Assembly (NCBI GenBank): GCA_965263185.1
Contig: OZ253588.1
Span: 1,153,454 to 1,217,453 of the forward strand
DNA length: 64,000 nt
Origin: Dehalococcoidia bacterium
GTDB lineage: Bacteria > Chloroflexota > Dehalococcoidia > Lucifugimonadales > UBA2985
Direction of reading: 5' to 3'
The position numbers were made by a program, and so were the translations under genes. Within the stretch, counting starts at the first letter, position 1. Every line of letters starts with the position of its first letter. The notes below the pieces were generated by a model. The model ran no database searches, had not been told where the DNA came from, and saw only the letters and a program-made list of their open reading frames with translations. Of this stretch, positions 2,745 through 62,847 are shown one piece after another.

Positions 2745-3389
2745 ATGACAATCCATGAGTCCGGCGCAAAGCTGGTTCCCGTCACCGTGTGGTACGACTA
2801 CATTTGACCCTGGTGCTACATTGGCCTGGCCAGGTTGGACCAGCTAGAGCGGGAATTTCCACTGGACATCACCTATAAGACCTTCTATCTCAGGCCGGAC
2901 ACGCCTCCGGATGGCATTGTACGCGCGCCGAGGGAGGGCGAACAGCCGGGAGCGCCCCTCACGGGCCACATCGGCGAGGTGGCGGAGGAGGCCGGGCTTG
3001 TCATGAAGCGCGCGCCCCTCACTCCCAACAGCCGTCTGTCCTTTGAGGCATCCGAGTTCGCCAAGGACAAGGGCGTTTTTGAGCCTTTCCACAGGGCGTG
3101 CTACCGCGCCTTATGGGAAGACGGCGCCAACTTGGGCCTGCTTTCGGAGCTTCAGCATCTGGGGGAGCAGGTGGGCCTGGACCCTGCGGAGATGAAGGAA
3201 CGCCTGGACGCGGGCTACTACACCGCCCAGGCTCAGGCCCAGTACGAGGAGGCTATCTCCGTAGGCGTGCAGGGCATACCCTCCTTCATCATAGGGAGGT
3301 ACTTCTTCTCAGGCGCTCAGCCCTACGAGCTTTTCAAGAAGGTGGCCGATATGGCGCAGAAGGAGGGCAACTCCGAAGGGGAAGGCTGA
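2745..3389 (+). CDS. DsbA/FrnE-like thiol:disulfide oxidoreductase, putative selenoprotein (Sec at TGA 2805-2807)
   Basis: The ORF track starts at TTG 2835, which removes the redox motif. Reading the same frame upstream from ATG 2745 (GGGGGT SD-like) gives MTIHESGAKLVPVTVWYDYI-TGA-PWCYIGLARLDQ, i.e. UPWC where FrnE/DsbA proteins have CPWC. The C-terminal GVQGIPSFIIG is typical of DsbA. Confidence 0.7.
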
Positions 3390-17558: not shown

Positions 17559-17901
17559 ATGCACATAACGAGCATAGCTAGTCAAGACATACCACAGATA
17601 GACGGTATTGATTTCCAATTTCATAAGCGGGTGAACCTGTTCATCGGCCCAAACGCGTCCGGCAAGAGTACCATCCTGCGGGCTATAATGCATTTGCGCT
17701 CCTTGGCGCTAGCGTCGGGGGGATCTACTATTCGCTCATTAGAAGCCAGAGGTATCTTTAACTGGGGCGATAGCACTACATATGTGGATGGAATCAACTA
17801 CCCCAGCCCTGGGGGTGGTCTGTCATTTGGTATGGAAGCAAGCGATGATTGGCCGCGAGATGACAAAGGGGGCATCAGATGGACCGAAGTGCCTTTCTTA
17901 T
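17559..17901 (+). pseudogene. ptuA: Septu-like PtuA ATPase, N-terminal fragment (gene split by IS1380-family insertion)
   Basis: Walker A motif LFIGPNASGKST. The reading frame runs straight into the IS left end at 17902. Confidence 0.7.
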
Positions 17902-19606
17902 CCCGAATCCACCGAAGGACACGGATGGGCGGCGTGAGGACCGGAGAAGGGGGATGAGAGAGCTACAGGGGAGATGGCCTGGGCTCGATTGGGGTAGATG
18001 GGAGGTCGGCGGAGGGACTTCAGTCACCGCACAGGCCCCCAATGGCCGTCTGCGGGAGCTGGGATGCGGGGGATGGCAAGAGAATAGGCAGCAGGGAACT
18101 CCCGCGGAGCTGGTTGGTGCGAGTTGGCGGGGACGTTGGGTCAGTGGCGGAGGGCGCCGTCAGGCTGGGAGTGGAATGGCTCGCAGCCGGGCCAGGGCGC
18201 GACTGAACTGGGTATCCCAGGGCCAGCGCCGGGGAAGATGCAGGGTCAATCGGCGTGCCGAGCGAGTGAGCCGTCCGGCCAAGGCGAAGACCCGTCGTCT
18301 GAGGGTCTTGGTGGTCACGATCTGCTCACCCAGGCCGATGCGGGCTGTCCAGCGGGCCAGGTTGTGTGCCATCACCTGTACCGCCAGCCAGGCTCCGTTG
18401 GCGGCGAAGCGGCCGGACGGCATGTGGTTCAGTCCGACACCGTACTTGAGGTCGCGTATCGCATTCTCGATCTCGGCGTGACGGCGATGATCAGCCTCCA
18501 GTTCGAGCATCTCCCCATCGCGGTCGGTGATGAAGCCGTGATAGCTGTAGGTGGCGAAGAGGGCCAACTGGGAACCGGGCGTGGGTTTCACCCGCCGGAC
18601 GATGAGCCGCACCGGCGCGGCGTCGGGCTCACTCTGGAAGGGGATATAGGTGGTCTCTGCCACATCGGCGGCGCCGTCCATCCAGTAGGGAATGGGAGTC
18701 CAGTCCTCTTCTGGTATGGCCTCGATGACATTGTGCAGGCTTTTGTGCTGGCGGATGGTGATGGAGAAGCGGACATCCATCTTGCGGCAGACGGATACCA
18801 CGCTATGAGCGTAGAAGCCGCTGTCGGCCCGCATCGTGAGTTGTCCCCTGGCCCCGGCGAAGCGCACCCGCCCCACCGTCTCACGCAGGAAGTGGGCGGC
18901 GCCGCGGGCGGTGTTGGCCCGGCCCTCGCGCAGCCGGGCCATCAGCACGTCTCCGGTTCCGGCGGCGACGGCCAGCAGCGGGTGATAGCCCCGCTGACCG
19001 GTGTAACCATGGTGGCGCGCCCCTTCCTTGGCCAGTCCATAGGTCTCGCAGATGGTGGAGTCCAGGTCGATGGTCAGGGGCCCGTCGCCGGGTCCGGCCC
19101 CGGCAGCCCAGGCCCGGGCCAGCAACTCCCGGCTAACCCGGTCCAGTTGGCGGACATGGCCCCACCTGAAGCTGCGCAGGAAGGCGCCCAGGGTGGAGGG
19201 AGCCTTAGCCGTGAAACCGAGAACGCGGGCGGTCCCGCCGGCGCGTAGCACATCGGCGTCGTCGATGCAGTCGCCACCGGCCAACGCGGAGGCCACCAGC
19301 GTCATCATCTTGTCACCGGTGTTGGCTCTGCCTTTTGCATGGCCCAGGTCCAGGTGCCGGTCAACCAGTTGGGGCAGGCCAAGGCGCAGGGCCAGGGTGG
19401 ACGGAAGAATCAGCCCGGCATTGGCCACCAGGCGGTGATCATCGAAGGCGATGCGGATGCGGTCGGGTTGGTGGCGTGGTAGCATCTATTGGGTGCTCCT
19501 TTTCCGGGACTGGTTTGCTGTTACAAAACCATTATCCCAGATTCAGAGGAGCACCCTTTGGCCACTTCAGGACGCTGACCCGACGCCCTCCTTCGGTGGA
19601 TTCGGG
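17902..19606 (-). mobile_element. IS1380-family insertion sequence, copy 1 (1705 bp)
   Basis: Perfect 17-bp terminal inverted repeats CCCGAATCCACCGAAGG. 5-bp direct target duplication CTTAT (17897-17901 and 19607-19611). Near-identical second copy at 54921-56625. Confidence 0.9.
18160..19485 (-). CDS. IS1380-family DDE transposase
   Basis: 441 aa. The C-terminal HRRHAEIENAIRDLKYGVGLNHMPSGRFAANGAWL block is typical of IS1380 transposases. Confidence 0.85.
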   Translation of the reverse strand: MLPRHQPDRIRIAFDDHRLVANAGLILPSTLALRLGLPQLVDRHLDLGHAKGRANTGDKMMTLVASALAGGDCIDDADVLRAGGTARVLGFTAKAPSTLGAFLRSFRWGHVRQLDRVSRELLARAWAAGAGPGDGPLTIDLDSTICETYGLAKEGARHHGYTGQRGYHPLLAVAAGTGDVLMARLREGRANTARGAAHFLRETVGRVRFAGARGQLTMRADSGFYAHSVVSVCRKMDVRFSITIRQHKSLHNVIEAIPEEDWTPIPYWMDGAADVAETTYIPFQSEPDAAPVRLIVRRVKPTPGSQLALFATYSYHGFITDRDGEMLELEADHRRHAEIENAIRDLKYGVGLNHMPSGRFAANGAWLAVQVMAHNLARWTARIGLGEQIVTTKTLRRRVFALAGRLTRSARRLTLHLPRRWPWDTQFSRALARLRAIPLPA

Positions 19607-20618
19607 CTTATATATACCCTCAACTCGGATCAGCCTCCCGGTCCAGCATGTTTTTGAGCCTCACATTTTTGACCAAGCAATAGAGGAGCCGGAAGATGTA
19701 GACGCAGATACAATACTGAAGCGCCTGTTTGACACTGAATCCGGTATCTTTGACGGCCGGTACGTGGAGTTGGCTATAGACCGGCTTCGCAAGGGAATGG
19801 TTGGGAATATAATCCAGCAGAACAACCTCAGTCGTGCTTTAGAGGACGCGTATACCTGTGCCTCGCGCATTTGTTCAGAGGTAATAAGCGATCGTTCCCC
19901 GCATCCCTACGTTGACCAGTATGAGACCGAGGGGACTAAGAGGACTGTTCATCATGCCATGGGGATAGGGACAAGCGACGTTTCTTGGAATACAGAGCAG
20001 CCTCTGTACGCAGGCGCTTTGAGCTCGGGGACCCAGGGAACTCTCCTGTGGGTCTACGCCCTAGCTCTCAAGATAGGAGAGCACTATGGGTTCGACGAGT
20101 ATTGGTGGGGCGGACAAGATAAGCCTGCAATCCTACTGATTGACGAGATAGAGAACCACCTGCATCCCACCTGGCAGCGGAGGGTTATACCGAAGCTGCT
20201 GGAGCATTTTCCCGGCTTGCAGATATTCGCTACAACCCACTCCCCCTTCGTGGTGGCCGGCCTGAAGGCCTGGCAGGTCCACCTGCTGAAGCGCGACGAA
20301 AACGGACGCGTCACCGCCACGACCTACCCCGAGGACGTTATCGGCTGGACGGCGGACGAGATCCTGCGGAACATGATGGGCGTTGAGGAGCCTACTGACC
20401 AACTCACAGTCGACCGCGCTAACCGGCTGCGGCAGCTCAGGGAAAAGGAAACGCTGACTCCCGAGGAAGAGTCCGAGTTGAACGAGCTGCGACGCCAGGT
20501 AAACGAGGATTTGTTGTCCAAGGGCGGCCCACTGGAAGCTCAGAGGGAGCGTTACGCGGACTTGATGGAGCGATTCCTGCTTTCCCGACAATCTGATCTC
20601 ACTCAAGAAGGAGATTAG
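19607..20618 (+). pseudogene. ptuA: Septu-like PtuA ATPase, C-terminal fragment
   Basis: ABC-type signature LSSGTQG, Walker B ILLIDEIENHLHP and H-loop ATTHSP. Deleting the IS and one TSD copy joins it in frame to 17559-17901 (..TEVPFLYIPSTRISLP..). Confidence 0.7.
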
Positions 20619-31938: not shown

Positions 31939-32796
31939 ATGACCCCAAGCGACTATCCTCGCCCGGACCTCTTGGTGGAGTCGGAATGGCTTGAGGCTCA
32001 CCTGAACGACCCAGACCTGCGAATCATCGACTGCGACCAGTACGACCTGTACACCCGCGCCCACATCGCGAACGCCGTGGGCATCCCGGAGCACAACTTC
32101 ATCAAGAATCCGAACTTCCCCAGCGATCCCACTGGCTATCCCTTGGTGGCGTCGGCGGAGGACTTTGCGCGTTTGATGGGCAGAATGGGTATTGGGAACG
32201 ACACGACTGTTGTGGCCTACGACGCCGGTGGAGGAACACGCGCCGCCCGGCTGTGGTGGGTTCTCAACTACTACGGGCACACCAAGGCCATGATGCTCAA
32301 CGGCGGCTGGAAGAAGTGGCACGACGAGGGTCGGCCCACGTCGACGGACGCGCTGAGGCCACCGGAGGCCTCTTTCACCTCTACGGAAGTCCCCGACTTG
32401 GTCTGCCTGATGGACTACGGAGTCTCGTGCGTCGGGGACCCGGACACGGTGTTCCTGGACGTGCGATCCGAAGACGAGTGGACGGGCGCCGGCGCACGCG
32501 GCAACAAGCGGGCAGGCCACGTGCCAGGAGCCGTACACCTGGAGTGGCTCAACTTCGTCACCAGCGACAAGCACCAGACCGTCAAGCCCGCCGCAGAACT
32601 GCGAGCGATGCTGGAGGAGCGCGGCGTCACCCCGGACAAGCAGGTGATCACCTATTGACAGGGAGGAATCCGTGCGGCGCACGGCGCGTTCGTTCTCACC
32701 CTAATGGGATACAACCGGGTACGTAACTATGACGGCTCCATGGGAGAGTGGGCCAACCGAGACCACACTCCTCTGATGGTGGAAGGCGCTGGCTGA
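31939..32796 (+). CDS. Two-domain rhodanese-like sulfurtransferase, putative selenoprotein (Sec at TGA 32656-32658)
   Basis: The ORF track stops at 32658 (..KQVITY*). Reading through gives [44 protein letters not shown], so the TGA sits at the catalytic Cys of the CxxGxR loop. The true stop is TGA 32794-32796. Confidence 0.75.
32670..32684 (+). promoter_or_regulatory. Candidate bacterial SECIS hairpin
   Basis: CCGTGC-GGC-GCACGG begins 12 nt after the in-frame TGA and has Gs in the apical loop. Confidence 0.45.
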
Positions 32797-33995: not shown

Positions 33996-36920
33996 ATGGT
34001 AGTGAGCAGGGTAGCAGGAGCAGTCTTGGCGGTTCTAATGCTCGTGGCTGCCCTGGCGTGCCAGGAGCAGGAACCTACCAGCACTCCGGACACCCAAGCC
34101 ACCATAGACGCCAGCGTGGCCGCTACCATGGCAGCAATGCCAACCGCTTTGCCTACGCCGACTCCTACACCTACGAGTACCCCGACTCCCACCCCAATCC
34201 ATGCACCTTCCAGCATCTCCACGCCCACACCCTTTCTCATGCCGACTAGAACCCCTTCCCCGACTCCTAATCCTGTACATACAGTGACTCCCGATACAAG
34301 TAAATTTACTGCCATCAACAGCGGCGCCTGGCAAACCTGCGCGCTTCGAGCTGACGGCTCTCCAGTTTGCTGGGGTGACAATTATTCCGGCCAGACATCG
34401 CCGCCCACGGACGAGAGGTTCACCGCGGTCAGCAGTGGTAGCTCACACATCTGCGCGCTCCGCGCCGACGGCTCCCCCGTCTGCTGGGGGGACGATGGTT
34501 CGGGCCAAGCGTCGCCCCCCATGGACGAGAGGTTCACTGCAATCAGCAGTGGGAATTATCACACTTGCGCACTCCGCGCCGACGGCTCTCCGGTCTGCTG
34601 GGGCAGTGATTTCTACGATCAGATACCGCGGCCGTCGGACGAGAAATTTGCCGCCATAAGCAGTGGCGATGACCACACTTGCGCGCTTCGCGCCGACGGC
34701 TCTCCCGTCTGCTGGGGCAATAATGATGAACGCCAAACGTCTCCACCTACGAACGAGACGTTTACATCCATCAGCAGCGGTGCTAATCACACCTGCGCAC
34801 TCCGCACCGACGGTACTCCCGTCTGCTGGGGCAGTGATTCCGATGGCCAAGCGTCGCCTCCTCCAGGCAAGAAGTTCGCCGTCATCAGCAGCGGACGTTA
34901 CCACTCCTGCGCGCTCCTAGCCGACGGATCTCCTGTCTGCTGGGGAAGCAACGCCTACCGTGGTGAATATGTAGGTCAGGCGTCACCGCCTGAAGACGTG
35001 GGACTTACTGCCATCAGCAGCGGTGGTTGGCACACTTGCGCGCTACGCGCCGATGGCTCTTCCGTCTGCTGGGGGTCGGATTTGGAAGGAAAAGCCTCAC
35101 CACCCGGGGGCGAGTTCATCGACAATACTCGCGGCCAAAGTTTCACCTGTGCAATCCGAGCCGACGGATCGCCCGTTTGCTGGACAGATGATAGCGATGG
35201 TCAAGCTCTGTTTCCAACTGGTGAAAATATCAGCGTCATCAGTAGTGGCGCAAATTACACTTGCGCACTCCGTTCCGACGGGTTGCCTGTCTGCTGGGGC
35301 AAAGAAGGTTCCCGGATAGCGTCGCCTCCCACGAATGAGAGGTTCATCGCCATCAGCAGCGGCTTGATCCACACCTGCGCTCTGCGGGCCGACGGCTCTC
35401 CGGTCTGTTGGGGTAGCAACTCGGGCTTATTGGGCAACTACATCGGCCAGGCGTCGCCTCCCTTGGGCGAGAAATTCACCTCCATAAGCAGTGGCTGGTT
35501 CCACACCTGCGCTCTGCGCGCCGATGGCTCTCCGGTCTGCTGGGGTGGCGATGAGGATGGCGAAGCGTCGCCTCCCTTGGGCGAGAAATTCACCTCCATA
35601 AGCAGTGGCGCTCTCCACACCTGCGCATTGCGCTCCGACGGCTCTCCGGTCTGTTGGGGGTCCAATCTAGATGTGTTAGAAAGTGAATTCCTCGGACAGG
35701 CTTCACCACCCGCAAATGAGGAGTTCACCACCATCAGCGCGGGAGACTTCCACACCTGCGCACTCCGTAGCGACGGCTCTCCCGTTTGCTGGGGCAGCAA
35801 CTTGGGCTATCTCACCGGCTACTCCGGCCAAGCATCTCCTCCAACGGACGAGTCGTTTGCTTCCATCAGTAGTGGCGAATATCATACCTGCGCACTCCGC
35901 GCGGATGGCTCCCCTGTATGCTGGGGCAAGTATAGAGATTTCGGAAACATGATCAGCCAGGCGTCGCTGCCAGCGGACGAGAAGTTCACTTCCATTAGCA
36001 GTGGGAGCGCTTATGCATGCGGATTGCGTTCCGACGGCTACCTTGTCTGCTGGGGCAGCAACCTGGACCATCTCTCCAACTTCGTCGGCAAAGCATTACC
36101 TCCCACAGGTGAGAGCTTTACTTCCATTAGCAGCGGAGAATTCCACACCTGCGCACTCCGAGCCGACGGCTCGCCCGTCTGCTGGGGTAGTGACTTTTAC
36201 GGCCAATCGTCACCTCCCGAGGGTGAGAAATTCACTGCGATAAGCAGCGACTTTTCACACACATGTGCGATCAGTGTCGACGGCTCACCCGTCTGCTGGG
36301 GAATCAATTCATTTGGCCAGGCGTCGCCCCCCACATGGGAAAGGTTCACCGCCATCAGTAGCGGCCTTTCTCACACCTGCGCCCTCCGGGCTGACGGCTT
36401 CCCCGTCTGCTGGGGTTTTTGGAGTGATGAGTTTGGTCGTATATCACCTGTGTCGCCGCCCACAGGCGAGGACTTCACCGTCATCAGCACCGGAACTCTG
36501 CACACCTGCGCGCTCCGCGCTGACGGATCTCCTGTTTGCTGGGGCGACAATGAGAACGGCCAGGCATCGCCGCCTCCCAGCGAGAAGTTTATTGCTATCA
36601 GCAGCGGAGAATCCCACACTTGCGCGCTGCGCGCTGACGGCTCACCCGTCTGCTGGGGTGATAATGAGAACGGCCAGGCATCGCCGCCTCCAAACGAAAA
36701 ATTCACTGCCATCAGCAGTGGGGATAGACACAGCTGCGCACTCCGCTCAAACGGTACTCCCGTCTGCTGGGGCAGTAATCTGTTTGGCCAAGCGTCGTAT
36801 CCCGCGGGCCAGAAGCTGATTGTCATCAGCTGTGGAGATAGTCACACGTGCGCGCTACGCCCAAACGGTACCCCAGTCTGCTGGGGCTGGGATAATGATG
36901 GCCAAGCGTCGCCGCCTTAG
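33996..36920 (+). CDS. Secreted lipoprotein with about 22 short RCC1-like repeats
   Basis: Signal peptide plus lipobox (LVAALAC), a PT-rich linker, then 22 repeats of about 37-43 aa of the form F(T/A)xISSGxxHTCALRxDGSPVCWGxxxxGQASPP. Confidence 0.8.
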   Translation: MVVSRVAGAVLAVLMLVAALACQEQEPTSTPDTQATIDASVAATMAAMPTALPTPTPTPTSTPTPTPIHAPSSISTPTPFLMPTRTPSPTPNPVHTVTPDTSKFTAINSGAWQTCALRADGSPVCWGDNYSGQTSPPTDERFTAVSSGSSHICALRADGSPVCWGDDGSGQASPPMDERFTAISSGNYHTCALRADGSPVCWGSDFYDQIPRPSDEKFAAISSGDDHTCALRADGSPVCWGNNDERQTSPPTNETFTSISSGANHTCALRTDGTPVCWGSDSDGQASPPPGKKFAVISSGRYHSCALLADGSPVCWGSNAYRGEYVGQASPPEDVGLTAISSGGWHTCALRADGSSVCWGSDLEGKASPPGGEFIDNTRGQSFTCAIRADGSPVCWTDDSDGQALFPTGENISVISSGANYTCALRSDGLPVCWGKEGSRIASPPTNERFIAISSGLIHTCALRADGSPVCWGSNSGLLGNYIGQASPPLGEKFTSISSGWFHTCALRADGSPVCWGGDEDGEASPPLGEKFTSISSGALHTCALRSDGSPVCWGSNLDVLESEFLGQASPPANEEFTTISAGDFHTCALRSDGSPVCWGSNLGYLTGYSGQASPPTDESFASISSGEYHTCALRADGSPVCWGKYRDFGNMISQASLPADEKFTSISSGSAYACGLRSDGYLVCWGSNLDHLSNFVGKALPPTGESFTSISSGEFHTCALRADGSPVCWGSDFYGQSSPPEGEKFTAISSDFSHTCAISVDGSPVCWGINSFGQASPPTWERFTAISSGLSHTCALRADGFPVCWGFWSDEFGRISPVSPPTGEDFTVISTGTLHTCALRADGSPVCWGDNENGQASPPPSEKFIAISSGESHTCALRADGSPVCWGDNENGQASPPPNEKFTAISSGDRHSCALRSNGTPVCWGSNLFGQASYPAGQKLIVISCGDSHTCALRPNGTPVCWGWDNDGQASPP

Positions 36921-41670: not shown

Positions 41671-42031
<361 letters not shown>

Positions 42032-42131: not shown

Positions 42132-43502
42132 TCACTCCGGGCGCCCGCTCTCCTGTCTCAGGGAAAGCTGGACGGAGTCGTCTCCCACAGAGACGTGAGA
42201 GACCAACGCCCTGAGAACACGGCCGGCGGCCTCGCCTTCCAGTGAGTCCCAATTTTGCAGCAGAGACGACATGTCTCCGGTGGCAAGCGCTTCCTCCAGT
42301 GGGCTTGGAGATGAGGGGCCACCCTCCGGGCCGGCTCTCTGAGCGTCCAACTCTGCAATGGTTGATCGGAGCCGCCCCAAAGACGTGATGCCGGCGGCGG
42401 CGCTCTCAAGCGCTCTCAGGAACTGGGGGCTGAGAGGCCGGTCGCCCGTTTCTGCGTTGTGTTGGAGGCTGGACGGGTCCAGCCTGGATTCCCCGCTCTC
42501 CAGCGCCTCTTTGGCCCGGTCGAGCGCCCGGCGCTCCAGGGCGTCGGCGCGCCAGGTATGATAGCGGCACATTCCCTGGTTGGTCCTGGACTGGCACTGG
42601 TAGTAGCGGTACTGTCCCTCAACGCGAGAGCCGTCCTTGCGCTTCCACCCCTGACGCCTGCTCACCCCAATCATGCGATTCCCGCAAGAGGCGCAGTATG
42701 CCAGCCCCGATAGGAGGAACGGCTGGACTGCGCGAGTCCTGCGCCTCTTCCTCCCTTGCTCCATCTTGTCCTGGGCCAATCTGAAGTCGTCTCGGCCTAT
42801 GATTGCCGCGTGGTTGCTGGGAACCCTCATCCCAAAGCGGGTGTAGGTGCCAATGTAGGCGCGATTTCGCAGGATGTCCCTTATAGTGACTATGCTCCAT
42901 CCCCTGCCGCCCCTGGTTTGGACCCCTCTCTCGTTCAGGCTGCGTACTATGCGCCTCATGCCCAGTTTCTCATTGTTGTACATGTCGAATATGAGCCCCA
43001 CTGCGGCGCTTTCATCCGGCACAACCTCAAGCCTGCGATCGGAGCCAATCCTGTATCCAAAAGGAGGCTTGCCAAGCCCCTCGCCTCGCATGGCCTTGGC
43101 GATCATGGCCTCCTTGATACGCTCCCCCCTGGGCTTGCTCCCTCTCCCCCTGTTCCAATGCTTCAGGGCTTGCTGAAGCGGGTCCGGAAACTCGTCGTCG
43201 CTGCATTTGACCTCGGCCCTCAGGGCGTCCAGCTCCAGAACGCGGCGCACGGAGGACTCCAGGGTGTCTCCAAGGTGTTGGGGGCCGGCGATGATAACCA
43301 GGAACTCAGCTTTGGACTGCTTGAGGTAGTCCAGCATTTCCCCGTAACGGAGGCGTCCGCCGTCGGGGTCGTCTTCTGCAAAGGTCGCTACTTGCTGGTG
43401 GCCGTGCTTTTGGCAGTAGCTAGAGAATGCCTCCTGCTGGCCAAGCAGCGCGGTCTCTCCCTGTGCCCCGCTCTGGACGGAGAAGTAACCTATAGCCCTC
43501 AT
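42132..43502 (-). CDS. Large-serine-recombinase-like protein (recombinase and zinc-ribbon domains; N-terminal catalytic motif appears degenerate)
   Basis: The central GKPPFGYRI..VPDESAAVGLIFDMY..GMRRIVRSLNERGVQTRGGRGWSIVTIRDILRNRAYIGT and CASCGNRM..YYQC are typical. The N-terminus reads GYFSVQSGAQ where resolvases have YxRVSTxxQ. Confidence 0.7.
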   Translation of the reverse strand: MRAIGYFSVQSGAQGETALLGQQEAFSSYCQKHGHQQVATFAEDDPDGGRLRYGEMLDYLKQSKAEFLVIIAGPQHLGDTLESSVRRVLELDALRAEVKCSDDEFPDPLQQALKHWNRGRGSKPRGERIKEAMIAKAMRGEGLGKPPFGYRIGSDRRLEVVPDESAAVGLIFDMYNNEKLGMRRIVRSLNERGVQTRGGRGWSIVTIRDILRNRAYIGTYTRFGMRVPSNHAAIIGRDDFRLAQDKMEQGRKRRRTRAVQPFLLSGLAYCASCGNRMIGVSRRQGWKRKDGSRVEGQYRYYQCQSRTNQGMCRYHTWRADALERRALDRAKEALESGESRLDPSSLQHNAETGDRPLSPQFLRALESAAAGITSLGRLRSTIAELDAQRAGPEGGPSSPSPLEEALATGDMSSLLQNWDSLEGEAAGRVLRALVSHVSVGDDSVQLSLRQESGRPE

Positions 43503-54524: not shown

Positions 54525-54920
54525 TACTGATGCCTTTTGCAAGTTGTCTGCGAGCGGATTGTTCTTCAAGGCGATTGATCTCCTTGGGGCAGATATCACC
54601 GAATGTGCTCGGTTACCGGCCCTTCCGTACATGCTAAAGAAGGGCCGATTGAGGACTATGTATGGCCCTGCAGTATGTGACGAATTGATGCCGATTGCTC
54701 ATAGTATGCCCATCGTGGATTGCACTAACAACGTCTGGCTGGACAAGTTGACGTTGGTGCAATCAATAGACCCTGGTGAGGCTCAACTCTTCGCAATGGG
54801 CGCTGCGACCGGGTTTCTAGTGATGACCGGAGACAAACGTGCACTTCGTGAGCTAAAGAGTATTCCCGATTTCCCCCAATTGCTTTCCGGACGTATAGTC
54901 GTATTGGAGACTGTTCTAAT
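54508..54920 (+). pseudogene. PIN-like domain protein, N-terminal fragment (split by IS1380-family insertion)
   Basis: MKLLVDTDAFCKL.., DPGEAQLFA and LVMTGDKRALREL give the D/E/D pattern of PIN-like nucleases. It overlaps the upstream gene by 17 nt, and the frame runs into the IS at 54921. Confidence 0.55.
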
Positions 54921-56625
54921 CCCGAATCCACCGAAGGACACGGATGGGCGGCGTGAGGACCGGAGAAGGGGGATGAGAGAGCTACAGGGGAGATGGCCTG
55001 GGCTCGATTGGGGTAGATGGGAGGTCGGCGGAGGGACTTCAGTCACCGCACAGGCCCCCAATGGCCGTCTGCGGGAGCTGGGATGCGGGGGATGGCAAGA
55101 GAATAGGCAGCAGGGAACTCCCGCGGAGCTGGTTGGTGCGAGTTGGCGGGGACGTTGGGTCAGTGGCGGAGGGCGCCGTCAGGCTGGGAGTGGAATGGCT
55201 CGCAGCCGGGCCAGGGCGCGACTGAACTGGGTATCCCAGGGCCAGCGCCGGGGAAGATGCAGGGTCAATCGGCGTGCCGAGCGAGTGAGCCGTCCGGCCA
55301 AGGCGAAGACCCGTCGTCTGAGGGTCTTGGTGGTCACGATCTGCTCACCCAGGCCGATGCGGGCTGTCCAGCGGGCCAGGTTGTGTGCCATCACCTGTAC
55401 CGCCAGCCAGGCTCCGTTGGCGGCGAAGCGGCCGGACGGCATGTGGTTCAGTCCGACACCGTACTTGAGGTCGCGTATCGCATTCTCGATCTCGGCGTGA
55501 CGGCGATGATCAGCCTCCAGTTCGAGCATCTCCCCATCGCGGTCGGTGATGAAGCCGTGATAGCTGTAGGTGGCGAAGAGGGCCAACTGGGAACCGGGCG
55601 TGGGCTTCACCCGCCGGACGATGAGCCGCACCGGCGCGGCGTCGGGCTCACTCTGGAAGGGGATATAGGTGGTCTCTGCCACATCGGCGGCGCCGTCCAT
55701 CCAGTAGGGAATGGGAGTCCAGTCCTCTTCTGGTATGGCCTCGATGACATTGTGCAGGCTTTTGTGCTGGCGGATGGTGATGGAGAAGCGGACATCCATC
55801 TTGCGGCAGACGGATACCACGCTATGAGCGTAGAAGCCGCTGTCGGCCCGCATCGTGAGTTGTCCCCTGGCCCCGCCGTAGCGAACCCGGCTCACCGTTT
55901 CACGCAGGAAGTGCGCGGCGCCGCGGGCGGTGTTGGCCCGGCCCTCCCGCAGCCGGGCCAGCAGCACGTCTCCGGTTCCGGCGGCGACGGCCAGCAGCGG
56001 GTGATAGCCCCGCACACCGGTGTAGCCGTGGTGGCGTGCGCCCTCCTTGGCCAGTCCGTAGGTCTCGCAGATGGTGGAGTCCAGGTCGATGGTCAGGGGC
56101 CCGTCGCCTGGTCCGGCCCCAGCCGCCCAGGCCCGGGCCAGCAACTCGCGGCTCACCCGGTCCAGTTGGCGGACATGGCCCCACCTGAAGCTGCGCAGGA
56201 AGGCGCCCAGGGTGGAGGGAGCCTTAGCCGTGAAACCGAGAACGCGGGCGATCCCCCCGGCGCGTAGCACATCGGCGTCGTCGATGCAGTCGCCACCGGC
56301 CAACGCGGAGGCCACCAGCGTCATCATCTTGTCACCGGTGTTGGCTCTGCCTTTTGCATGGCCCAGGTCCAGGCGCCGGTCAACCAGTTGGGGCAGGCCA
56401 AGGCGCAGGGCCAGGGTGGACGGAAGAATCAGCCCGGCATTGGCCACCAGGCGGTGATCATCGAAGGCGATGCGGATGCGGTCGGGTTGGTGGCGTGGTA
56501 GCATCTATTGGGTGCTCCTTTTCCGGGACTGGTTTGCTGTTACAAAACCATTATCCCAGATTCAGAGGAGCACCCTTTGGCCACTTCAGGACGCTGACCC
56601 GACGCCCTCCTTCGGTGGATTCGGG
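54921..56625 (-). mobile_element. IS1380-family insertion sequence, copy 2 (1705 bp)
   Basis: Same 17-bp terminal IRs as copy 1. 5-bp target duplication CTAAT (54916-54920 and 56626-56630). Confidence 0.9.
55179..56504 (-). CDS. IS1380-family DDE transposase
   Basis: 441 aa. Differs from the copy-1 protein at a handful of positions clustered in the N-terminal half. Confidence 0.85.
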   Translation of the reverse strand: MLPRHQPDRIRIAFDDHRLVANAGLILPSTLALRLGLPQLVDRRLDLGHAKGRANTGDKMMTLVASALAGGDCIDDADVLRAGGIARVLGFTAKAPSTLGAFLRSFRWGHVRQLDRVSRELLARAWAAGAGPGDGPLTIDLDSTICETYGLAKEGARHHGYTGVRGYHPLLAVAAGTGDVLLARLREGRANTARGAAHFLRETVSRVRYGGARGQLTMRADSGFYAHSVVSVCRKMDVRFSITIRQHKSLHNVIEAIPEEDWTPIPYWMDGAADVAETTYIPFQSEPDAAPVRLIVRRVKPTPGSQLALFATYSYHGFITDRDGEMLELEADHRRHAEIENAIRDLKYGVGLNHMPSGRFAANGAWLAVQVMAHNLARWTARIGLGEQIVTTKTLRRRVFALAGRLTRSARRLTLHLPRRWPWDTQFSRALARLRAIPLPA

Positions 56626-56829
56626 CTAATTGCTCTTTGTGATCGGTTCGGGCCTGACAAGATACGCCAATGCATTCAGGGACTGGCCGCATGGGACATA
56701 GTCGCCCGGAATAGTTTCTCCTCTGGCAACACCGATCCTCGGGATGGCCTGAACTCGTATTACAATGACCTCGAGGTCGAAGTCGACCCGTTAGTCCTGT
56801 GGAATCCTAGATCGCAAGGGAACTCATGA
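56626..56829 (+). pseudogene. PIN-like domain protein, C-terminal fragment
   Basis: Removing the IS and one TSD copy restores ..VVLETVLIALCDRFGPDKIRQ.. in frame. The stop overlaps the next start (ATGA). Confidence 0.55.
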
Positions 56830-62197: not shown

Positions 62198-62388
62198 CAG
62201 CGCTCGGCTGAAGGCTAGCCGGAGCGGTGGTCCGTTCCCCAGGGCCCATTGAAGGCTCAACGGGTTCAAGGGGAACGGACGCCCTCACCTACCCAACCTC
62301 CGCGGCGCGTTGCCGTTGGGCCACCGCGCGTATCGCAGTAAGGCCACGTTTTGCGCTATGATAGAGTCATAAACTTCAGGAGGTACAA

Positions 62389-62847
62389 ATGCCGGCAGAG
62401 GTAGGAGACAAGGCGCCAGATTTCACACTCCGCTCCCACACGGGTGAAGACGTCACCCTGAGCCAGTACCTTGGACAGAAGACGGTGGTGCTCCAGACCC
62501 ACGTTCTATCCTTCACAGGCGGTTGAACGCACCAGTGCTCCTCATTCCGGCTGGATAACCGCCGGTACGAGGAGCGCGACGCCCAGGTCCTGGGCATGAG
62601 CGTTGATAGCGCGCCAACTCAGAGGGCTTTCGCCACAGGGTTGGGAAACCTCCCATACCCGTTGCTGGCCGACTTCCACCCCAAGGGACAGGTGTCGGAA
62701 CTCTTCGGCATTTACAACGAGGAGCGGGGCGTAACAAGGCGGGCCGTGATCATCATAGACAAAGAGGGTGTGATAAGGTACAAGAGGATTTACACCGAGG
62801 GCCTGCCGGACTCCAAGGAGATTCTGGAGGAGTTGGACAGGCTGTAG
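62389..62847 (+). CDS. Peroxiredoxin (AhpC/TSA, BCP-like), putative selenoprotein (Sec at TGA 62524-62526)
   Basis: ATG 62389 follows CAGGAGGT. Translation is MPAEVGDKAPDFTLRSHTGEDVTLSQYLGQKTVVLQTHVLSFTGG-TGA-THQCSSF, and it continues in frame into ORF 62596-62847 (..RAVIIIDKEGVIRY). The TGA is at the peroxidatic Cys (TxxC) position. Confidence 0.75.
62535..62577 (+). promoter_or_regulatory. Candidate bacterial SECIS hairpin
   Basis: The 7-bp stem GCTCCTC/GAGGAGC encloses the 5-bp stem CCGGC/GCCGG with a 9-nt loop TGGATAACC. It starts about 10 nt after the TGA. Confidence 0.5.

Follow-up and report, generated by a model that had tools for sequence, protein, structure and literature searches.

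Positions 62389-62847 of the stretch of DNA analyzed here (64,000 nucleotides, hereafter the window) raise the question of whether a peroxiredoxin-like reading frame with an internal TGA is a single gene, in which this codon is read as selenocysteine (Sec), or a pair of separate fragments. We conclude with high confidence that the interval is one intact gene and not two fragments, and that it encodes a 152-residue AhpE-like peroxiredoxin (Prx) with a peroxidatic Sec.

The reading frame and its product

A Shine-Dalgarno-like ribosome-binding site (CAGGAGGT, 62377-62384, + strand), read directly from the sequence, is spaced 4 nt from ATG 62389. Translation from this ATG (MPAEVGDKAPDFTL...SFTGG[TGA]THQC...DRL) meets an in-frame TGA at 62524-62526 and is otherwise open until TAG 62845-62847, giving a frame of 152 codons in which the TGA is codon 46, in the context S-F-T-G-G-[TGA]-T-H-Q-C. 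The original prediction had placed the ribosome-binding site, the start codon, and the TGA correctly, and no later stop precedes the TAG. The features of the locus are as follows.

62377-62384, + strand: ribosome-binding site CAGGAGGT, by direct reading of the sequence
62389-62847, + strand: coding sequence of the AhpE-like (AhpC/TSA) Prx, very probably with Sec at residue 46, from translation, Pfam, the AhpE match, and dN/dS
62524-62526, + strand: TGA, assigned to U46 of the motif T43-G-G-U46, aligned with the peroxidatic Cys and kept as TGA in relatives
62535-62577, + strand: hairpin 1, two-tier and bacterial SECIS-like, from folding, synonymous recoding, covariation in Chloroflexota, and the contrast between Sec and Cys forms
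62579-62597, + strand: hairpin 2, with the core GCCCAG-GUC-CUGGGC at 62581-62595, from pairing and compensatory changes across Sec forms

With Cys put in place of the TGA, the product matched the Pfam family AhpC-TSA (PF00578) at an E of 1.6e-31 and 109 bits (cut-off 26), along positions 1-123 of the 124-position profile and across the TGA. The AhpC/TSA N-terminus recognized at the outset is therefore part of a whole domain, and the protein is predicted to adopt the AhpC/TSA fold. The top matches among solved structures were AhpE chains of M. tuberculosis (E 2.6e-27 to 3.5e-25), with the 2-Cys Prx BAS1 (E 6e-18) and BCP (E 1.8e-14) matching worse. No NCBIfam model was above its cut-off, the top one being the PrxU model NF040737 (59.7 bits against 270). 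These results place the protein with the AhpE-like Prx and argue against a PrxU equivalog.

The nearest solved structure, M. tuberculosis AhpE (Rv2238c; PDB 1XXU, 1XVW, and 5C04; E 2.6e-27, residues 4-137), is a 1-Cys Prx of the same length as the window Prx, with the catalytic Thr and Arg conserved. Its peroxidatic Cys45 lies opposite U46 in the alignment, as do the Cys residues of Cys-containing database homologues, which bears out the earlier assignment of the TGA to the peroxidatic position. R118 aligns with the catalytic Arg of the AhpE motif ANRGTFVVD and is invariant in both family alignments, and the Thr at position -3 from Sec (T43 here) was present in 74 of 74 Sec relatives. AhpE differs from the window Prx in having Cys instead of Sec, in keeping the active-site Pro, and in lacking a Cys at +4. 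The conserved Pro of PxxxTxxC (position -7) is V39 in the window Prx, which departs from the motif at this point; at this position, 52 of the Sec relatives have V, I, L, or A and 22 have P, as do six of six Cys forms. The loss of Pro is a feature of the Chloroflexota clade, most forms of which carry V, I, or L and within which Cys forms also lack it. C50, which completes a U-x-x-x-C motif, was restricted to the window Prx and its four nearest genomic relatives. Cys homologues carry the database name 'mycoredoxin-dependent peroxiredoxin'; to our knowledge, the mycoredoxin/mycothiol system that reduces AhpE is actinobacterial and is not expected in Chloroflexota.

The gene (prx) lies between genes for a betaine/proline-type ABC transporter (proV and proW) on one side and a TrmI-like tRNA methyltransferase on the other. 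The methyltransferase gene, 3' of prx, was considered as a selenoprotein relative and rejected, since its weak NCBIfam ArsM/UXPK matches represent the methyltransferase domain alone and the product is TrmI/GCD14-like. Scans for sigma-70 promoters and intrinsic terminators around prx yielded nothing useful.

Among the best 80 loci from species-representative genomes, codon 46 was TGA in 74 and TGC in six, and TAA or TAG in none. The TGA forms span Dehalococcoidia, other Chloroflexota, Acidobacteriota, Deltaproteobacteria, Binatia, Eisenbacteria, Armatimonadetes, and Planctomycetota.

RNA structure downstream of the TGA

The two-tier hairpin proposed at 62535-62577 (hairpin 1) is real and begins 8 nt after the TGA. 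Its lower stem has 9 bp (GUGCUCCUC/GAGGAGCGC) and contains the originally described 7-bp stem GCUCCUC/GAGGAGC; above it are an inner stem, CCGGC/GCCGG, and a loop, UGGAUAACC, the ends of which are able to add two weak G-C pairs. The apical region starts ~28-31 nt from the U of UGA. The minimum free energy (MFE) of the segment 62518-62590 was -36.4 kcal/mol, with a z of -3.5 to -3.7 against dinucleotide shuffles, of which 1 of 200 and, in a repeat, 0 of 200 were equally stable. Against 200 synonymous recodings, in which the 19 codons after the TGA were changed with each gene's own codon usage, z was -3.7 and none was as stable. These results indicate that hairpin 1 exceeds what the peptide or the base composition would give.

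The same recoding test separated Sec from Cys forms. The mean z for hairpin 1 was -2.1 in the 74 Sec forms (52 of them below -1.64) and -0.4 in the six Cys forms. When 71 additional Cys forms from metagenomes were included, giving a contrast with 80 Cys forms, the means were -2.26 for Sec and -0.75 for Cys (Mann-Whitney p 2e-12), with a mean MFE of -17.0 and -9.5 kcal/mol, respectively. Over the two comparisons, the mean MFE of hairpin 1 was -17 to -19 kcal/mol in Sec forms and -8 to -9.5 kcal/mol in Cys forms. RNAalifold returned no consensus structure for 75 segments downstream of the TGA, and 53.6% of hairpin 1 cells were paired when all sequences were held in a fixed register. Because hairpin 1 does not keep one register from clade to clade, we relied on the per-sequence recoding tests and on an alignment of Chloroflexota only. 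In the latter (50 distinct sequences), 76.9% of hairpin 1 cells were paired in a fixed register, and seven of 11 pairs had double changes; none of 500 shuffles scored as high, and slid registers reached 35-48%. The SECIS check called for by the original prediction thus shows RNA-level selection on hairpin 1 where codon 46 is TGA but not where it encodes Cys.

The distance from the UGA to the start of the apical loop was 16-37 nt in 72 of 74 Sec sequences, which is the range of the bSECISearch model. The apical loop of a SECIS is expected to contain a conserved G, which the MFE loop of the window hairpin (AUAA) lacks; once the weak 2-bp GG/CC helix at the top opens, the loop becomes UGGAUAACC and has G at its positions 2-3. 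Among the relatives, a G was located within the MFE loop in 44 of 74.

A second hairpin (hairpin 2), with an 8-bp stem and a 3-nt loop, lies directly 3' of hairpin 1, at +55 to +73 from the UGA and with a gap of 1-3 nt between the two. Its consensus, AUGCCCAG-GUN-CUGGGCAU, codes for D-A-Q-V-L-G-I, and its core for A-Q-V-L-G. Over 68 distinct Sec forms, 96.1% of hairpin 2 cells were paired and six of eight pairs had compensatory double changes, with none of 500 shuffles as high and slid registers at 18-45%. The 6-bp core was completely paired in 63 of 74 Sec forms and in one of nine Cys forms. In-clade Cys forms numbered just three, and the counts are not independent, since the Sec forms may share ancestry.

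Hairpin 2, together with part of hairpin 1, could instead reflect codon preference within a conserved peptide and have no function as RNA, an explanation that we regard as possible, if rather unlikely. The peptide A-Q-V-L-G written as GCC CAG GTN CTG GGC is self-complementary, and these palindromic codons are presumably the commonest in GC-rich genomes. The window hairpin 2 forms seven of the eight consensus pairs, and its own recoding z was just -1.3, which is not significant alone; the Sec forms may, moreover, be a single clade. Nevertheless, with controls that use each gene's own codon usage, the mean z was still -2.0 for the Sec forms and only -0.11 for 80 Cys forms (p 5.5e-19), and the hairpin is not retained by Cys forms whose peptide is identical or closely similar. 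Compensatory changes also preserve pairing despite changes of amino acids, as in ACC...GGU, in GCU...AGC (Gly to Ser), and in GUCGAG/CUCGAU (V-E-I-L-D). One TGC form (L101) is near-identical to a Sec form (L014), yet retains both hairpins, which fits a recent switch from Sec to Cys. RNA-level selection therefore acts on both hairpins, and hairpin 2 probably supports the recoding signal.

Selenocysteine insertion and its alternatives

No selA, selB, selD, or tRNA-Sec was found by Pfam, NCBIfam, and ARAGORN within the 64-kb window or 8 kb past its end. The window corresponds to roughly 45.8-109.8 kb of the 387-kb contig ctg818686_17x_l of ENA ERZ25071132, and no member listed for the SelA cluster lay on this contig. 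ARAGORN detected no tRNA-Sec in either the window or the flanks of 60 relatives, and tblastn with E. coli SelA and SelD queries found SelA in L001 alone and SelD in none. Accordingly, SelA is the one component observed in relatives, and SelB, SelD, and tRNA-Sec were observed nowhere in the sequence covered.

In syntenic relatives, the gene order is TetR, proV, proW, prx, trmI, and HD, followed by acs, an HMGL-like gene, and selA. The selA gene lies 5-7 kb downstream of the prx orthologue in three relatives (L001, L099, and L100) with a Prx 89-93% identical to that of the window. L001 is a closed Dehalococcoidia chromosome (OY821663.2), the SelA of which scored 550 bits on TIGR00474 (cut-off 268); in L099 and L100, the Prx is 92-93% identical and SelA is encoded ~5 kb downstream. 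SelA homologues named for Chloroflexota, Dehalococcoidia, and SAR202 are abundant. The window genome is rearranged 3' of HD, where L28, FakA, DegV, and RecG follow. The presence of Sec machinery, on which the original prediction depended, was thus borne out for syntenic relatives of the lineage and not for the window, the 8 kb beyond it, or, as regards the listed SelA cluster members, the 387-kb contig. Since the available sequence of the window genome yielded no sel genes, we infer the machinery of this exact genome from its relatives.

Two further genes in the window have a TGA at a catalytic Cys, in agreement with the earlier count of three such cases in 64 kb. A scan of codon usage around all in-frame TGAs in the 64 kb yielded three with coding potential on both sides, all at a catalytic Cys; a scan of long ORFs for TGA read-through gave 163 pairs that were mostly spurious, so that the codon-usage scan alone was informative. 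In a DsbA/FrnE-like gene (2745-3389), the TGA at 2805 is part of the motif Y-I-U-P-W-C, and the DSBA domain (residues 13-199) extends across it. In a tandem-rhodanese gene resembling 3-mercaptopyruvate sulfurtransferase (31939-32796), the TGA at 32656 is located in the active-site loop (U-Q-G-G-I-R), and the rhodanese Pfam domain likewise spans it. Both DsbA-like proteins and rhodaneses are known selenoprotein families (PMC1088965). The three putative selenoprotein genes in the 64 kb are each mis-called or uncalled.

Sec-independent readthrough of the UGA by, for example, a near-cognate Cys- or Trp-tRNA, stimulated by the downstream hairpins, would give a Cys or Trp protein in low yield, possibly with a regulatory role. 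Stable downstream structures are generally able to stimulate readthrough, and the available sequence of this genome yielded no Sec machinery. We nonetheless consider such readthrough highly improbable, given that relatives with a 92-93% identical Prx have SelA beside the same gene cluster. In addition, bacterial selenoproteins are defined by a TGA/Cys pair at a redox-active site with a hairpin ~10 nt 3' of the codon (PMC1088965), a signature that prx shows, as do the two further redox genes of the window.

A nonsense mutation that split a Cys-Prx into two dead fragments is a still less credible origin of this locus, with a probability that we place close to zero. Every contig shown is called as products of 45 and 83 aa, and the Sec machinery is absent from the window, as would suit a pseudogene. 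The 45-aa call lies just upstream of the 83-aa call in each of six contigs read whole, and the identical 83-aa fragment occurs on 17-18 contigs in all; the same split on multiple contigs excludes a sequencing error. However, across several phyla and 74 species-level genomes, the stop is always TGA and falls precisely at the catalytic codon. Against four relatives, dN/dS was 0.10-0.16 upstream of the TGA (codons 1-45) and 0.11-0.26 downstream of it (codons 47-152); these low values on both sides of the TGA indicate that both halves are translated in one frame. The uncalled stretch from the TGA to the internal ATG is also conserved and bears the selected RNA structure. The halves are thus not separate pseudogene fragments in relatives, and the conserved TGA, the purifying selection, the Sec-specific hairpin, and the SelA of syntenic relatives together uphold the original designation as a probable selenoprotein.

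A search of 5.8 billion proteins showed how the gene calls have shaped the databases. The nearest relatives were mostly C-terminal fragments of 83-99 aa, representing truncated gene calls, and some of these were named SAR202, Chloroflexi, or Dehalococcoidia. Full-length relatives had Cys or 'W' opposite codon 46, and the 'W' at this catalytic column would be a TGA translated under a Trp code.

An altered code that assigns TGA to Trp or Gly, so that the residue is not Sec, as the W at the codon-46 column of homologues P0001, P0003, P0004, P0006, P0007, and P0009 might suggest, can be dismissed as next to impossible, given that TGA terminates 20 of the 52 confidently predicted genes in the window, as expected of the standard genetic code, that just three TGAs in 64 kb have coding sequence on both sides, all at a catalytic Cys, that Trp or Gly as the peroxidatic residue would abolish catalysis, and that close relatives have SelA.

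Known systems, proposed mechanism, and meaning

The founding Sec-Prx is PrxU of Eubacterium acidaminophilum (Söhling et al. 2001, cited in PMC13188914), through which Sec-Prx with a TxxU motif are established by experiment, and the Sec-Prx family has been found in 78 sequenced bacteria (PMC5029168). The window Prx resembles PrxU and other Sec-Prx (PF00578, TxxU) in its AhpC/TSA fold, as predicted, in the motif T-x-x-U, and in a peroxidatic UGA followed by a stem-loop. It differs from PrxU in belonging to a short AhpE-like branch of ~150 aa with a score below the cut-off of NF040737, in having Val for Pro in PxxxTxxU and a Cys at Sec+4, and in its second conserved hairpin. The Prx-like thiol:disulfide oxidoreductase selenoproteins, which are frequent in marine metagenomes, have their Pfam clan in common with the window Prx. 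In that family, a thioredoxin-like UxxC replaces TxxU (PMC1088965); the motif T-G-G-U found here therefore indicates a true Prx and not a Prx-like protein.

Like the bacterial SECIS elements of the E. coli fdhF type that bSECISearch models, hairpin 1 is a stem-loop that lies within the reading frame just 3' of the UGA, with an apical loop ~16-37 nt from it, and it is kept against synonymous drift only together with the TGA. Unlike them, the window element has no common primary sequence, an ambiguous loop G, a long two-tier stem, and an adjacent hairpin 2 that covaries with the Sec state. It also had no match in Rfam, whether the whole window was searched at gathering thresholds or 62380-62700 at E <= 10.

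On these grounds, translation would start at ATG 62389 and proceed until UGA 62524 enters the A site. Hairpin 1 (62535-62577) would then recruit SelB·GTP·Sec-tRNA(Sec), and Sec would be inserted without termination. These steps are those of the standard SECIS mechanism in bacteria, the operation of which in this organism is proposed by analogy. Hairpin 2 (62579-62597), which co-occurs with the TGA in relatives, probably supports the signal. The U46 selenolate, presumably activated by T43 and R118, would reduce peroxide and be converted to a selenenic acid; this chemistry, like the peroxidase activity as a whole, is predicted from sequence. The selenenic acid may be resolved by C50, which would form a selenenylsulfide with U46, or by an external thiol reductant, as for the 1-Cys AhpE, with a redox partner that is likewise conjectural.

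Sec-peroxiredoxins form an abundant selenoprotein family of long standing, and as the TxxU type was already known in 2001, there is nothing unusual in the gene itself. What goes beyond the textbook case is modest, namely an AhpE-like subfamily with a lost Pro and a Cys at +4, the near-universal mis-annotation of the gene in Dehalococcoidia, and hairpin 2. Only the last of these, as a Sec-associated structure supported by covariation, could add to knowledge, and if functional it would extend the one-hairpin picture of bacterial SECIS elements; a brief search of the literature turned up no account of a second hairpin in them. We offer only tentatively, as a rather doubtful proposal, the wider view that the recoding signal of this Sec-Prx is bipartite and that the family marks a largely unannotated selenoproteome of Dehalococcoidia (SAR202-related). 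In a bipartite signal, hairpin 2, maintained across phyla by compensatory changes and lacking in Cys forms, may aid Sec insertion by insulating the SECIS or stacking on it, or through pacing of the ribosome.

In all public contigs inspected, prx is called as 45 aa plus 83 aa or is shown with a catalytic Trp, and as a result the catalytic half of this enzyme is missing from protein databases. The enzyme affected is an antioxidant enzyme that is very common in Dehalococcoidia and other Chloroflexota, and the word 'selenoprotein' was absent from the top-ranked genome literature on SAR202 and Chloroflexi. Given the DsbA-like and rhodanese selenoproteins predicted beside the Prx within these 64 kb, thiol-redox functions of the organism probably depend on selenium, and such a dependence bears on trace-element ecology.

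Second hairpin and the Cys form L101

A second hairpin was identified directly 3' of the SECIS-like hairpin 1 of the AhpE-like Sec-peroxiredoxin gene (prx), and a Cys form of the gene was compared with L014, a Sec form (TGA at the catalytic codon):

Window 62579-62597, +55 to +73 past the TGA in L001-L080 (the 80 best related prx loci): hairpin 2, an 8-bp stem with a triloop
L101:301-762 (ENA ERZ23496604 scaffold_106): Cys (TGC) peroxiredoxin form

Among 68 distinct Sec forms, hairpin 2 was 96% paired and showed compensatory changes; it was absent in 80 Cys forms whose encoded peptide is the same or very similar. The TGC form L101 is almost identical to L014 and retains both downstream hairpins (z -3.9), which look like a fossil SECIS, the remnant of a recent Sec-to-Cys replacement.

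Active-site proline and linkage to selA

In the window, V39 (codon 62503-62505) of prx occupies the Pro position of the peroxiredoxin motif PxxxTxxC. Of the 74 Sec forms, 52 had V, I, L or A in place of this otherwise universal Pro (loci noted: the window and relatives L001-L051). The Pro-less set takes in the Chloroflexota Sec forms and their in-clade Cys relatives, and the Pro was kept in the acidobacterial and deltaproteobacterial forms.

The prx neighbourhoods of three syntenic relatives, compared with the window's own contig (L084), contained selA, in the order prx, trmI, HD, acs, HMGL-like and selA:

L001:17754-19106; L099:10001-11365; L100:10001-11365: selA in the prx neighbourhood

In the window's genome, this linkage was lost past the HD gene, and L28, FakA, DegV and RecG were found there instead.

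Other in-frame TGA genes and features of the window

Two further genes with an in-frame TGA were identified in the window:

2745-3389 (+): DsbA/FrnE-like thiol-disulfide oxidoreductase gene, TGA at 2805-2807
31939-32796 (+): tandem-rhodanese, 3-mercaptopyruvate-sulfurtransferase-like gene, TGA at 32656-32658

The first TGA lies inside the span of the Pfam DSBA domain (E 2.2e-27), at the first Cys position of the CPWC motif (Y-I-U-P-W-C), and the gene is represented in ORF lists by its downstream portion alone (2835-3389); a modest hairpin at +5 to +38 past this TGA showed no significance against shuffles. The second TGA is the catalytic Cys position of the rhodanese (Y-U-Q-G-G-I-R); public gene calls end this gene at 239 aa, beyond which 45 further in-frame codons carry the remainder of the rhodanese domain.

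Additionally, the window harbored two direct copies of an IS1380-family insertion sequence (17895-19608 and 54914-56627; 1,714 bp, 98.4% identical), each with a 441-aa transposase on the minus strand (18160-19485 and 55179-56504). A 974-aa ORF (33996-36920, +), given in public calls as an 832-aa product without domains, had atypical codon-position GC (0.54/0.61/0.64), diverged internal repeats (35319-35659 and 36453-36911, 75-80% identical) and no Pfam or NCBIfam match. Bacterial class A RNase P RNA (41673-42024, -; 316 bits) adjoins a large serine-recombinase gene (42132-43502, -; domains Recombinase and Zn_ribbon_recom), a neighbourhood that may mark an integrated element.

Public annotation of the peroxiredoxin

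The prx selenoprotein is present in public protein collections in three wrong forms, as seen from database proteins P0001, P0003, P0004, P0006, P0007 and P0009 and from the genes called in L081-L100: an 83-99-aa fragment, a 45-aa fragment, and a full-length protein with a catalytic Trp, which we infer to be the TGA translated as Trp. Therefore, family-level statistics for this peroxiredoxin are distorted.
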